Positions 5,425 through 48,068 of a stretch of DNA of 64,000 nucleotides are shown here, one piece after another; the first letter of the stretch is position 1, and every line of letters begins with the position of its first letter. The DNA comes from Patescibacteria group bacterium (GTDB lineage Bacteria; Patescibacteriota; Patescibacteriia; Veblenbacterales; UBA10138). The stretch is from assembly GCA_018817715.1 (NCBI GenBank), contig JAHITT010000006.1, forward strand, positions 75,147-139,146, given 5' to 3'. The notes under the pieces are model-generated. The model was not told where the DNA came from and searched no databases. It worked only from the letters and a program-made list of their open reading frames with translations. The translations under genes and the position numbers were made by a program.

Positions 5425-5826
5425 ATGAACGGCTACATTTCTAACATAGAAAAAATAACCAAAGAAAATAAAAACTTTAGGCAGGTGCTTTACACGGGTA
5501 AACACAGCCAATTAGTGGTTATGCGGCTTAAACCCGGGGAAGATATAGGAGAAGAAATTCACACCCTAGACCAATTTATTAGAATAGAACAGGGTAGTGG
5601 ACAAGTTATCTTAAACGGCGTGGAATCGGAAATAAAAGAAGATTACGCTATTGTTATACCGGCCGGCGTTAAGCATAACGTGGTTAACAGCTCTTTAAGC
5701 GATGATATGAAGCTATACACGGTTTATTCGCCGCCAGAACATAAAGACGGCATTGTTCACCTAACCAAAAACCAGGCTCTAAACGATCTGGATGATCATT
5801 TTGACGGCAAAACCACAGAAAAATAA
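5425..5826 (+). CDS. cupin-domain protein
   Basis: GEEIHTLDQFIRIEQGSG ... VIPAGVKHNVVN two-motif cupin pattern. Confidence 0.7.
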   Translation: MNGYISNIEKITKENKNFRQVLYTGKHSQLVVMRLKPGEDIGEEIHTLDQFIRIEQGSGQVILNGVESEIKEDYAIVIPAGVKHNVVNSSLSDDMKLYTVYSPPEHKDGIVHLTKNQALNDLDDHFDGKTTEK

Positions 5827-6306: not shown

Positions 6307-7083
6307 ATGCATTTATTAAAAACTACCGAACAAACTAAAAATAATTTGTTCGAAAACATGCCACCTAAACTAAGTTTTATTTTCGGCTTAGTTAGTGGTT
6401 TAGCTGTTGTAGGTCTGCTGGGTTTATTATTAACCACCACCTATTTATTGACTAATAAAAACAAAACCGAAAAAATTACCAACTCTCCCAACCAACCAAC
6501 TGCTAATAATACCGATACCGTTGGTTTAAACCCGCCCCTACAACCAGTTAATATCACTGCTAAAGATACCGACTATATTCGAGGAAATAAAAATGCGGCT
6601 ATTACATTAATAGAATATTCAGATTTAGAATGCCCTTTTTGCCAACGGTTTCACCCTTCTATGCTCCAATTGTTACAAGAATACCCCGAACAAGTCCGTT
6701 GGATTTATCGACACTTTCCTTTATCTTTCCACGCCAATGCCCAAAAAGAAGCTGAGGCAGTTGAATGCGCGGGCAAACTTGGTGGCAATGACAAATTTTG
6801 GCTTTACCTTGATACCATATTCAACAGAACAACCTCCAACGGTACTGGTTTTGCTTTAGATAAACTCACCCCCTTAGCCGTAGAAATAGGCTTACCTAAA
6901 GACAAGTTTGAAACTTGTTTGGAAAGCGGAGAATTTGCTGGTAAAGTCCAAAACGATTTGCAAGAAGGCTCTAGTTTTGGCGTTTCTGGTACACCCACTA
7001 CTTTTGTTAATGGACAACCAGTGGAAGGGGCTGTTCCTTATGCTCAATTAAAACAAATAGTAGATTCTTTACTAGAACAATAA
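6307..7083 (+). CDS. DsbA-family thiol:disulfide oxidoreductase, membrane-anchored
   Basis: N-terminal TM helix; thioredoxin-fold active site CPFC; DsbA-like C-terminus GVSGTPTTFVNG. Confidence 0.8.
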   Translation: MHLLKTTEQTKNNLFENMPPKLSFIFGLVSGLAVVGLLGLLLTTTYLLTNKNKTEKITNSPNQPTANNTDTVGLNPPLQPVNITAKDTDYIRGNKNAAITLIEYSDLECPFCQRFHPSMLQLLQEYPEQVRWIYRHFPLSFHANAQKEAEAVECAGKLGGNDKFWLYLDTIFNRTTSNGTGFALDKLTPLAVEIGLPKDKFETCLESGEFAGKVQNDLQEGSSFGVSGTPTTFVNGQPVEGAVPYAQLKQIVDSLLEQ

Positions 7084-7596
7084 ATGACTAAATATAATTC
7101 AACTAAACAACTTAATCAAAAAATAAAAAATAGAAAAAAATTCGTCAAAAAAATTTCATTTCTTATTTTGTTTTTGTTGATAACCGGATTTATAACCTGG
7201 TTAATTCTACGATCATCGTACAATAAACCAAAAATTGATAATGGTTTAATATCTAAAAATGGACTTCATTGGCACGCTCAGTTAAGCATTAAAATAAACG
7301 GCCAGTTAGAAAAAATTCCGGCAGATGTGGGTTTAAAAACAATACATTTACCTATTCATACTCACGAAACCGACGGCACCATTCATCTGGAATTTTCCGG
7401 CTTAACAACTAAACAAGACACTCAATTGGGACAATTCTTTAACAATTGGGGAAAAGTTTTTAATAGCAACTGTATTTTTGATTATTGTACTGACAACAAC
7501 AAAAAACTCAGTCTATATGTTAACGGGCAACCTAATTGGGAATTTGACAAATATGAAATGAAAGACAATGATACACTAGAGATAGTGTTTGAATAA
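7084..7596 (+). CDS. membrane-anchored hypothetical protein
   Basis: Starts directly after the dsbA-like stop; N-terminal TM helix; His-rich HWHAQ..HTHETDGTIH segment. Confidence 0.45.
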   Translation: MTKYNSTKQLNQKIKNRKKFVKKISFLILFLLITGFITWLILRSSYNKPKIDNGLISKNGLHWHAQLSIKINGQLEKIPADVGLKTIHLPIHTHETDGTIHLEFSGLTTKQDTQLGQFFNNWGKVFNSNCIFDYCTDNNKKLSLYVNGQPNWEFDKYEMKDNDTLEIVFE

Positions 7597-7881: not shown

Positions 7882-8133
7882 ATGAAATTATCAATTAAAA
7901 AATCTACAAAAAATAAAATTAAATCAAATACTAACAAAGTTAAAGATGAAATTACCGAAGAGCTTCGCAAACTTGGCGATAAAATTATGATTATGACCAA
8001 AGAGGCCAAAGTTAAGTATGATCAGTCCGACGAGCAGACTAAGAAAAAAATTCTAACCGGCGTAATCGGCGCGGCTACTATTCTTTCCGGTATTATTGGT
8101 TATAAAGTAATTAAGGGCAAAAAAAGTAAATAA
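7882..8133 (+). CDS. hypothetical Lys-rich protein with C-terminal TM helix
   Basis: 83 aa ORF; no motif recognised. Confidence 0.35.
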   Translation: MKLSIKKSTKNKIKSNTNKVKDEITEELRKLGDKIMIMTKEAKVKYDQSDEQTKKKILTGVIGAATILSGIIGYKVIKGKKSK

Positions 8134-8160
8134 TTATAAGCTTTACTTATTAAATAGATT

Positions 8161-8169
8161 TGCTATATT
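8161..8169 (+). promoter_or_regulatory. extended -10-like element TGcTATATT
   Basis: Matches TGnTATAAT in 8 of 9 positions; lies 10 nt before the ATG at 8180. Confidence 0.35.
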
Positions 8170-8179
8170 CACTAATACT

Positions 8180-8230
8180 ATGTTGGCCAAGTGTTTAAAT
8201 AACGACAATAACGATAATAACCAGCCCTAA
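8180..8230 (+). other. 16-codon mini-ORF MLAKCLNNDNNDNNQP, possible leader peptide
   Basis: ATG 8180; codons 7-14 are AAT AAC GAC AAT AAC GAT AAT AAC; the TAA stop lies inside the 5' arm of the following hairpin; tRNA-Asn starts 84 nt after the stop. Confidence 0.2.
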
Positions 8231-46835: not shown

Positions 46836-47201
46836 TTAATCAAAAATAATTTTTTCCAAAGCATTTAATTTTTCTTGAAACTCAATCATTATTTCCTCAG
46901 GTATTTTATCAACAAACCCGCTATATTTTTTAGCCCTATCTTCGACCCATTGACGCATTGTTTCTAATTGCATTTTAACTGTTTCATAAACATTCGGATC
47001 CAATTCCCCTTGAGCTGCTTGCAAATGTAAAAAAATAGCGTCAAAGCTAGTAATAAAACAATCCGCTAAATTATAAGCCGGTAAACCTTCTGGAGACTTT
47101 GGCCTATTATAAAATTCCATTTGGGCGGCGGCTGGAGTTTGTTTAAAAACATTACGCAACGCTTCTAATTTATTTTTTTCTGCTAAAGGTTCTTTTTCCA
47201 T
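46836..47201 (-). CDS. hypothetical helical protein
   Basis: 121 aa; no motif recognised. Confidence 0.4.
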   Translation of the reverse strand: MEKEPLAEKNKLEALRNVFKQTPAAAQMEFYNRPKSPEGLPAYNLADCFITSFDAIFLHLQAAQGELDPNVYETVKMQLETMRQWVEDRAKKYSGFVDKIPEEIMIEFQEKLNALEKIIFD

Positions 47202-47347
47202 AAATTAAAGCAACTATCAAGAATAAACTCTCTGCTACTGTAGTTTAATACCTAAACCGCTTGCTTGACAAACTAGTGTAGAACAATCTTATTAAACCTT
47301 ACTCTAAGCTTAAAAATAATTTACCTAATTTACCTGTTCCACAACCC

Positions 47348-47375
47348 TTGACTTTCTCACCTCTAATTATATATT
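47348..47375 (+). promoter_or_regulatory. sigma-70-like promoter TTGACT, 16-nt spacer, TATATT
   Basis: Read directly from the sequence; no protein-coding gene lies downstream on the + strand. Confidence 0.45.
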
Positions 47376-47382
47376 TAACTGT

Positions 47383-47592
47383 TATTTAACAATCAAGTTT
47401 TGTGCTTAATAACTTGGAGGGGAGACAAAATTAATTGTGCTGGTCTGTTTAGCTGGTACTAACTAGCTCTAACCAGAGGTCAATTAATTCGAAACAGTGA
47501 TCTTTGGATCAAAACTGTTTCCTAAGTTCTCCTCCAGATTAATAAATTCAAACCATAAATATCCAGCTTACTACAAGCTGGATATTTTATTC
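47383..47592 (+). ncRNA. candidate structured small RNA, unknown family
   Basis: The promoter above; P1 47406-25/47527-45; P2 47440-76 (tetraloop ACTA); P3 47491-47521; AATTAATT in both junction strands. Two G-T wobble pairs are valid only on the + strand. A 12-bp terminal hairpin lies at 47558-86. Confidence 0.3.
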
Positions 47593-48068
47593 AATAATCT
47601 TTTCCGGTATTCCATTTCTATTAACCAAATAGCTAAACAATCAAAAATTATAAAACCAGCCAACCACCAAGTTGGCCTAATTAACCAATGATACGCTTGG
47701 TATGTTAATATAATAGCCAAAAATAATTCATACCAACGGTAAGACCAAAGCCAGCCACGATAAACAGCTGCCGATAGCACTATTTTAGCTGAGCCCTGTA
47801 ATAAAAAATATACAGCCAAAAAAAACTGCACTTTAAAAGAAATATGGCTGGAAAGATTGGTTAAATAATTGGCTATAAAATCTGATGGATCTTCAGCTAA
47901 TTCCCGCCAAAATAACCAACCCACTAAACCCACAATCGATCCGGTCGGGTTAAACCAAAGTATTAAGCCGGCAAATAATTCAGCCAAACCTTCCAAAGAT
48001 TTACTAATAATCGTAATATCAAACAAACCGTGTAAAACCTTATAAAGCCTGGCTTTTTTCTTAATCAT
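47571..48068 (-). CDS. four-TM membrane protein (DUF2127-like, tentative)
   Basis: 165 aa with a hydrophobic helix pattern; family assigned from memory only. Confidence 0.45.
   Translation of the reverse strand: MIKKKARLYKVLHGLFDITIISKSLEGLAELFAGLILWFNPTGSIVGLVGWLFWRELAEDPSDFIANYLTNLSSHISFKVQFFLAVYFLLQGSAKIVLSAAVYRGWLWSYRWYELFLAIILTYQAYHWLIRPTWWLAGFIIFDCLAIWLIEMEYRKRLLNKISSL

Follow-up and report, generated by a model that had tools for sequence, protein, structure and literature searches.

Orphan structured motifs of bacterial non-coding RNA (ncRNA), among them the raiA motif RNA from the motif surveys of Breaker and Weinberg, were reportedly found by comparative genomics and are said to have no known function. 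Patescibacteria have tiny, gene-dense genomes, and to our knowledge almost nothing is known of their regulatory or structural RNAs. Here we describe a locus in a stretch of 64,000 nucleotides (the window) from a low-GC Patescibacteria genome (GenBank assembly GCA_018817715.1, contig JAHITT010000006.1, positions 75,147 to 139,146 of the forward strand), in which the neighbouring proteins carry KKC17_ locus tags. Positions 47381–47593 on the + strand of the window probably form a stand-alone gene for a structured ncRNA of ~210 nt from an uncatalogued family, which would constitute an autonomous stable module. A conserved sigma-70-type promoter would fire into a gap between two genes, the transcript would fold into a three-way junction, and an intrinsic terminator would end it. 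Comparison with relatives suggests a new family of stand-alone structured bacterial ncRNA, absent from Rfam 15. By analogy, this three-way-junction RNA would work most like the orphan structured ncRNAs, with which it shares the promoter-to-terminator unit, a compact covarying multi-helix fold, a narrow phylogenetic range and the lack of coding potential. It differs from them in having no Rfam 15 match, in its patescibacterial host and in where its conservation lies, namely in one helix (with a GGAGG/CCUCC core) and not in loops, junctions or pseudoknots.

A second described system is OLE RNA, which is reported to have a length of ~600 nt, a membrane-protein partner, OapA, and a conserved partner gene, oapA (PMC3413148). 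The likeness lies in a structured RNA that sits among housekeeping genes and is directly followed, in several lineages, by a small membrane-protein gene. The differences are the length (~130–210 nt here vs. ~600 nt), the downstream proteins, which are non-homologous and absent in three lineages, and the lack of a match to the Rfam OLE model. The locus thus only loosely recalls OLE/OapA, and the analogy raises the idea of a membrane-associated RNA–protein particle.

The RNA lies in a 369-bp gap (47202–47570) between two − strand open reading frames (ORFs) and contains no credible ORF, in agreement with an initial annotation that had been made from the sequence alone and had put the gap at ~370 bp. 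Over positions 47380–47592 the + strand folds at −68.9 kcal/mol against −38.4 ± 4.0 kcal/mol for shuffled sequences (z = −7.6; 0 of 200 shuffles as good), while the − strand reaches −62.5 kcal/mol (z = −5.2). The architecture is a three-way junction in which a long closing helix, P1, surrounds a three-part P2 arm (P2a, P2b and P2c) and a P3 hairpin. The parts of the unit are as follows (L numbers denote related lineages):

47348–47375, + strand: sigma-70-type promoter, TTGACT (−35), 16-nt spacer and TATATT (−10), with 10 of 12 consensus matches.
47381–47403, + strand: predicted transcription start at about G47381, placed from the position of the −10 hexamer, and 5′ leader GUUAUUUAACAAUC...
47399–47415, + strand: 5′ strand of the outer extension of the closing helix, imperfect in the window.
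47416–47424, + strand: 5′ strand of the P1 core, GGAGGGGAG, Shine-Dalgarno-like.
47429–47437, + strand: 5′ strand of P2a, AAUUAAUUG, in perfect pairing with 47481–47489.
47440–44 with 47472–76, + strand: P2b (CTGGT/ACCAG), which encloses P2c.
47451–57 with 47462–68, + strand: P2c (AGCTGGT-ACTA-ACTAGCT), loop ACUA at 47458–61.
47481–47489, + strand: 3′ strand of P2a, CAAUUAAUU, which pairs with AAUUAAUUG.
47491–47521, + strand: P3 hairpin, made of P3a, P3b, a UUUG loop and a conserved AAA bulge at 47511–13.
47527–47535, + strand: 3′ strand of the P1 core, UUCUCCUCC, anti-Shine-Dalgarno-like.
47536–47552, + strand: 3′ strand of the closing helix extension, AGAUUAAUAA..., in which GAUU.AU, directly after P1, is invariant.
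47557–47593, + strand: intrinsic terminator predicted from the fold, a 13-bp hairpin followed by a U-rich tail, with an equivalent hairpin and U-tract in L106.

P1 as a whole pairs 47406–47425 with 47527–47545, as the initial annotation had proposed; its solid part is 11 bp long (47414–47424 with 47527–47537) and includes three G·U pairs (T47414·G47537, G47421·T47530 and G47424·T47527), and its 7-bp extension has one A·A mismatch. The annotation had named the first of these wobbles and that of P2c (G47455·T47464), both of which are real, and had also drawn the hairpins P2 (47440–47476) and P3 with the limits found here. Its two copies of the octamer AATTAATT are present as well, at 47429–47436 and 47482–47489, one base off the places given, and they form the covarying P2a helix and not the single-stranded junctions to which they had been assigned: written as DNA, AATTAATTG (47429–37) is fully complementary to CAATTAATT (47481–89). 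Within P3, P3a pairs 47491–98 with 47514–21 (GAAACAGT/ACTGTTTC) and P3b pairs 47499–502 with 47507–10 (GATC-TTTG-GATC). The junction strands are short (1–5 nt), comprising CAA (47426–28, past the unpaired A47425), C (47490) and CUAAG (47522–26), and they join the 11-bp closing helix to one arm of 61 nt and one of 31 nt.

Homologues were found in seven further lineages of Patescibacteria, relatives of Kerfeldbacteria/Veblenbacteria, so that eight lineages are known with the window; some of the carrier genomes bear the labels Candidatus Kerfeldbacteria and Candidatus Veblenbacteria. The closest, L081 (GCA_964619435.1), was reached through the homologue of a 121-residue protein encoded at one flank of the gap; it is syntenic with the window and carries the RNA at 849–992 on the − strand, 86% identical and with no indels. 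A degenerate pattern of the two P1 strands (TTGGAGG...), which would miss P1 variants of the L140, L149 and L153 types, was scanned over metagenome contigs and returned 55 stretches, from which a first covariance model built on two sequences accepted L106 only (116.6 bits). The other 54 scored 22 bits or less, had different folds and were rejected as chance P1-like pairs in unrelated sequence. L140, L149–152, L145, L139 and L153 were reached by following MurC homologues into other contigs. Covariance-model scores were 170.8 bits for L081, 40.9 for L149–152, 33.1 for L153, 31.6 for L145 and 31.3 for L139, and L140 scored 71.7 bits in the first model and 120.8 in the second. In the L147/L148 lineage the RNA was not present between murC and murB, nor was it found at the syntenic place in relatives with 68–74% ProRS identity (L001, L082 and L083) in a ProRS synteny search of species-representative genomes. 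P1-pattern scans of viral contigs (four) and BLAST against phage genomes gave no match and so no sign of a phage origin.

Between the window and L081, which share 82% protein identity in ProRS, the RNA core is 86% identical, more than the adjacent spacer (66%) or the ProRS and 121-aa genes (79%), and is the best conserved DNA of the neighbourhood. The 142 compared positions hold 18 substitutions, of which 12 are unpaired, four make up two compensated pairs (U-A to C-G and A-U to G-C), one leads to U·G and one breaks a pair. In a model-made alignment of four lineages, 98% of the pair cells were standard and 14 pairs had changed on both sides, against 0–2 when the 3′ partners were moved by 1–3 columns as a control. 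The automatic alignment misplaced P1 or P3 in L149, L139 and L145 owing to lineage-specific inserted hairpins of 24–35 nt; the one in L149 separates P1 from P2, and that in L139/L145 interrupts the 3′ strand of P3. A curated alignment was therefore made by hand for seven of the eight lineages, with rows checked against the genomic sequence and columns that the aligner accepted unchanged. Of the 429 cells of this alignment, 93.9% are paired, and both sides have changed in 37 of the 63 pairs, compared with 3–11 pairs when slid, and none of 500 shuffles reached any of the measures. The changes are spread over all helices (P1 extension 11; P2a 7/9; P2b 4/7; P2c 6/7; P3a 6/8; P3b 3/4), and P2c is 100% paired. 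Two independent checks agree with the curated alignment: the signal in the model-made alignment, and the fold of each homologue taken singly, which reproduces the architecture and in every case exceeds its own reverse complement in stability. The conservation and compensatory changes in related genomes by which the initial annotation had proposed to check its RNA were thus found, and by this pattern of substitution the RNA is under purifying selection.

What is conserved in sequence is narrow. The 9-bp P1 core (GGAGGGGAG/UUCUCCUCC) is invariant in seven lineages, its two G·U pairs included; L153 has GGAGGAGAG/CUUCCUCC in its place, which leaves GGAGG/CCUCC common to all eight. The AAA bulge of P3 is likewise conserved in 8/8 lineages and, with the last G of the P3 tetraloop and one U, makes up the invariant unpaired columns. 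Junction strands, internal loops and the P2c loop vary freely between lineages.

The promoter at 47348–47375 is present as initially annotated. Taken in isolation it is not above chance, as the region has 6 promoter-like sites against 7.2 expected, and its weight comes from the relatives: a predicted TTGAC(A/T), 16–17 nt, TATNNT arrangement stands upstream of the RNA on the same strand in 8/8 lineages, with hexamers and spacing kept and the spacer sequence varying in L081, L106, L139, L140, L145, L151 and L153. A GTTA..TTTAA motif directly follows the −10 hexamer, at the predicted start, in 7/7 aligned lineages. An exact tandem duplication, TAATTTACC TAATTTACC, at 47317–47334 just upstream of the −35 hexamer, is not kept in L081.

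At the other end, the terminal hairpin and its overlap with the 3′ end of the convergent gene stand as first annotated, and its size is corrected from 12 bp at 47558–47586 to arms of 13 bp (47557–69/47575–87) around a 5-nt loop (−16.2 kcal/mol, z = −6.9). It covers the stop codon (47571–73) of the convergent gene, which encodes a DUF2127 protein. As the − strand gives an equally good hairpin (−17.2 kcal/mol), followed by UUUAUGGUUU, the terminator may be bidirectional and end both transcription units. L106 has its terminator, with a U-tract, at 6579–6605, and in both the window and L106 hairpin and U-tract lie 10–25 nt past the closing helix; in the remaining lineages the terminator is absent or replaced by ORFs. 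A position-conserved promoter of its own and a same-strand intrinsic terminator (window and L106), both predicted, are what the locus has in common with bacterial small RNA genes. The discrete structured ncRNA of unknown family that the initial annotation had placed on the + strand, from promoter to terminator, is supported as a predicted unit by folding, covariation and the Rfam searches given below.

The same data bear on the strand. The 45 G·U cells of the curated alignment become A·C on the other strand, where pairing drops from 93.9% to 85.8%, which extends to the whole family the argument for the + strand that had been drawn from two wobbles in the window. Covariance-model scores on the opposite strand are 15–27 bits, compared with 120–150 bits on the RNA strand. 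Together with the conserved −35 and −10 hexamers and the U-tract terminators, the G·U cells identify the + strand of the window as the transcribed one. A − strand feature, either a 5′-untranslated element of the gene at 46836–47201 or a 3′ element of the gene at 47571–48068, would suit the neighbours, all of which lie on the − strand from 29.9 to 54.8 kb, and the − strand fold, which also beats its shuffles (z = −5.2). It would, however, turn three G·U pairs of P1 and one of P2c into A·C, and neither neighbour gene stands beside the RNA in the six lineages that carry it between murC and murB, so we give this explanation almost no credence. The 121-aa gene in particular has its own predicted − strand promoter, TTGTCA-18-TAAACT (47271–47242), which lies between gene and RNA, downstream of the element as read on the − strand, and is the same in L081; by these predictions the gene is transcribed divergently from the RNA. 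This promoter, and the six lineages that have the RNA and not the gene at the fetched loci, speak against the suggestion in the initial annotation that the structure might be a cis element of that gene.

An inverted repeat that acts as DNA, whether a miniature mobile element or a protein-binding palindrome, would account for the long inverted repeat that the closing helix represents and for the occurrence of the element in two genomic places, ROK/ProRS (window and L081) and murC/murB (the others). Yet the 64-kb window holds a single copy, to which the scans of viral and phage sequence and the pattern scans added no others, the inner hairpins show covariation at the level of single pairs, the G·U pairs are strand-specific with conservation that is not symmetrical between the strands, and promoter and terminator have a consistent orientation. 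We regard a role as DNA as scarcely plausible.

Rfam 15 at gathering scores found two tRNAs only in the whole window, and at E ≤ 10 nothing relevant on either strand of 47150–47650, the search on both strands that the initial annotation had proposed; the homologous regions of six related lineages gave nothing relevant at gathering or at permissive E-values. ARAGORN called no tRNA or transfer-messenger RNA at the locus in the window or at seven related loci, and the literature on structured RNAs of Patescibacteria and the candidate phyla radiation (CPR) yielded no description of the three-way-junction RNA. A small ORF inside it (GTG at 47438, 9 codons) was rejected: its stop is not kept in L081, indels that are not multiples of three break the frame, and the substitutions are compensatory and not codon-like.

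A highly divergent housekeeping RNA has to be considered at this point. The ~124-nt core, with its closing helix, long first arm with internal loops and shorter second arm, has the layout of 5S rRNA, a three-way junction of ~120 nt with the same arm order, and the long flanking stem resembles an extended precursor processing stem; this is a resemblance only. The 5S model (RF00001) has no match at E ≤ 10 in the 500-nt search or in the relatives, the large conserved loops C and E are absent, the hairpin loops are variable tetraloops, extra lineage-specific hairpins of 24–35 nt are tolerated so that the length is not fixed, and its gene shares a variable island with small ORFs. Another candidate, from the initial annotation, was 6S RNA, which is rod-shaped and mimics an open promoter by means of a large central bubble; the present RNA resembles it in that it stands alone, is ~200 nt long, has a promoter of its own and pairs its 5′ end with its 3′ end. 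That proposal fails, as the tight three-way junction is not a rod and has no central bubble of the 6S type, and the 6S models (RF00013 and its clan) match neither the window at gathering scores, nor either strand of 47150–47650 at E ≤ 10, nor the relatives. Descent from either RNA thus appears extremely improbable.

The position of the RNA in the relatives bears on whether it is a gene of its own. In six lineages (L106, L140, L149–152, L145, L139 and L153) it is flanked by murC and murB, both of which are encoded on the other strand. The murC–murB spacer is a hypervariable island of 0.45–1.95 kb in L106, L139, L140, L145, L147 and L149–153, in which a shared promoter, opposite to the mur genes, is followed by varying combinations of modules and by non-homologous small ORFs. 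In L140, L139/L145, L149–152 and L153, same-strand ORFs for small membrane, lipoprotein or signal-peptide proteins lie 30–60 nt past the closing helix, and comparison between lineages found no homology among the ORFs downstream of the RNA save in the close pair L139/L145. These ORFs suggest a possible, if rather unlikely, cis-acting 5′ leader that would serve generically in the stability or expression of the downstream small envelope-protein gene: they leave no space for a separate promoter ahead of them, and the promoter travels with the module. The window copy would then have lost its cargo and be a leftover, or act through read-through only.

However, in the window, L081 and L106 the RNA is not followed by an ORF; a proper terminator comes next in the window and L106, and a non-coding segment in L081. 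For all the divergence of their ProRS, the window and L081 still retain the RNA, with compensated pairs and under purifying selection. A mere 5′ stabiliser, moreover, needs no invariant helix sequence. In L151 and L153 the module follows another RNA module and an ORF and does not stand at the 5′ end of the transcript. Because the RNA is kept without a downstream gene in three lineages, which supports its autonomy, and is not the 5′-most element in two others, a pure 5′ leader is less likely than a stand-alone gene.

The same ORFs could be read as the targets of a riboswitch or ligand-sensing aptamer, the window copy being an orphan or trans-acting one. The three-way topology and a size of ~125 nt are like those of many aptamers, the RNA stands upstream of ORFs in five lineages, and the anti-Shine-Dalgarno-like 3′ strand of P1 could in principle compete for a downstream Shine-Dalgarno. 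Against this, junctions, internal loops and hairpin loops vary; with nothing fixed beyond the P1 core, the AAA bulge and two single bases, no conserved pocket is visible. The downstream genes, being non-homologous, imply no common pathway, and three lineages lack a gene to regulate. With a closing helix of 18–30 bp, far too stable to switch, no conserved alternative pairing or expression platform, no pocket and no shared downstream function, the riboswitch is rejected as very improbable.

We return to the stand-alone gene and to how its RNA might be made and used. The closing helix has 18–30 bp across the family, mostly 22–30, with 18–23 bp and mismatches in the window and L081; its outer extension of 12–16 bp is near-perfect and differs in sequence in L106, L140, L139/L145, L149 and L153. 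As this outer helix keeps pairing and not sequence, and reaches the length of an RNase III substrate in 6 of 8 lineages, two production routes are possible: the RNA would either be a primary product of its own promoter and terminator, which would apply to the window, or be cut out of a longer transcript in the relatives with ORFs, by RNase III-type processing of a polycistronic transcript. RNase III processing stems flank stable RNAs such as rRNA precursors. The flanks here are like them in forming a duplex, of 22–30 bp in most lineages, whose pairing is kept while the outer sequence drifts; they are unlike them in the inner 9 bp, whose invariant sequence a mere processing stem does not need, and in the window stem, which is shorter and mismatched, and cleavage is hypothetical.

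The RNA would then be no switch but a stable module that acts autonomously. A helix fixed in sequence, including two wobbles, next to free loops and one A-rich bulge, points to a duplex that is recognised by a partner or held by an A-minor contact. The invariant P1 duplex, with its wobbles and the AAA bulge, may thus offer a surface that is recognised by a partner, most probably a protein; alternatively, a tertiary A-minor contact could explain the conserved bulge and the fixed helix. The GGAGG/CCUCC core can also be read as Shine-Dalgarno and anti-Shine-Dalgarno, which may reflect a link to the ribosome or simply a purine/pyrimidine helix.

Several points weigh against a stand-alone gene and this account of it. 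Promoter, start and terminator are predictions. In five of the eight lineages an ORF with its own Shine-Dalgarno follows 30–60 nt past the closing helix and there is no clear terminator, which fits a cis-acting leader. No lineage of the family has a weaker extension than the window and L081 (18–23 bp with mismatches). The evidence for RNase III consists of helix length and the covarying extension, and partner, target and processing site are all hypothetical. The RNA is known from eight lineages only, and the large collections were scanned with exact patterns and not with the covariance model. Finally, the curated alignment was fitted by hand to the structure, with three lineage-specific insertion hairpins cut out, so that its counts are inflated. 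At the level of sequence, the fold, its compensatory conservation, the + strand and the promoter and terminator signals are shown.

The other RNA module of the island, which we have named the “U-domain”, is a second conserved structured module; in L106, L151 and L153 it comes after the shared promoter and before the three-way junction. It occurs at:

L151, about 6935–7120, − strand: U-domain.
L153, about 7925–8180, − strand: U-domain.
L106, about 6935–7165, − strand: U-domain.
L147, about 5640–5780, − strand: U-domain, alone, without the three-way junction at the locus.

Its closing helix has 22 bp and covaries (AAGGUGUUUAYCNNGGUAYCAG/CUGGUAUCNNGRUAARCACCUU), followed by U5–6, and in L147, L151 and L153 a non-homologous transmembrane ORF of 40–62 aa comes next. 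The U-domain has no Rfam match and is not present in the window. In L139 and L145 the island also holds ~1 kb of GC-rich sequence without an ORF. In L081, the place of the DUF2127 gene of the window is taken by a GC-rich segment of ~125 nt after the RNA (671–795) with a strong fold (z = −6.5) and no Rfam match, which is 68% identical to L139 7854–7979 (E = 1.5e-11); with respect to the three-way junction, the L139 copy has the reverse orientation.

A more speculative and, in our estimate, improbable extension would make three-way junction and U-domain the RNA part of a new envelope-linked RNA–protein system of the ultra-small CPR bacteria. The RNA modules would be excised, via their long processing stems, from the hypervariable island beside cell-wall genes, and would join small membrane or lipoprotein partners or present the GGAGG/CCUCC duplex to a ribosome-associated factor. 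Both genomic homes of the RNA, murC/murB and mreB–mreC–pbp2, the latter within 3 kb of the RNA in the window, adjoin cell-wall or cell-shape clusters, which we take as an after-the-fact hint.

The gap in the window is flanked by two genes:

46836–47201, − strand: 121-aa ORF, at one flank of the gap.
47571–48068, − strand: 165-aa DUF2127 membrane protein, convergent with the RNA gene, at the other flank.

The 121-aa protein has one homologue only among 5.8 billion proteins and no Pfam or NCBIfam family. Structure prediction gives a four-helix bundle, confident (pLDDT 85) but generic, for which comparison with solved structures gave generic fold matches only and none that was informative (best E = 0.03), and the loci fetched for the six murC–murB lineages show no copy of the protein. 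A link between the protein and the RNA finds no support in these results. More widely, every long ORF between 29949 and 54841 lies on the − strand, across 25 kb of strongly negative GC skew, and the RNA gene is the lone + strand unit there, against the direction of its neighbours, just as it opposes the mur genes in the relatives.

For the biology of these organisms, a covarying RNA that keeps its own promoter across lineages with ~64–82% identity in housekeeping proteins likely does something that the cells need. It offers a search model for the annotation of CPR genomes and a small, concrete target of ~125–210 nt for structure probing and partner pull-downs. Its fixed helix and free loops, together with the variable island of small envelope proteins beside cell-wall genes, would point to a specific recognition event that can be tested.

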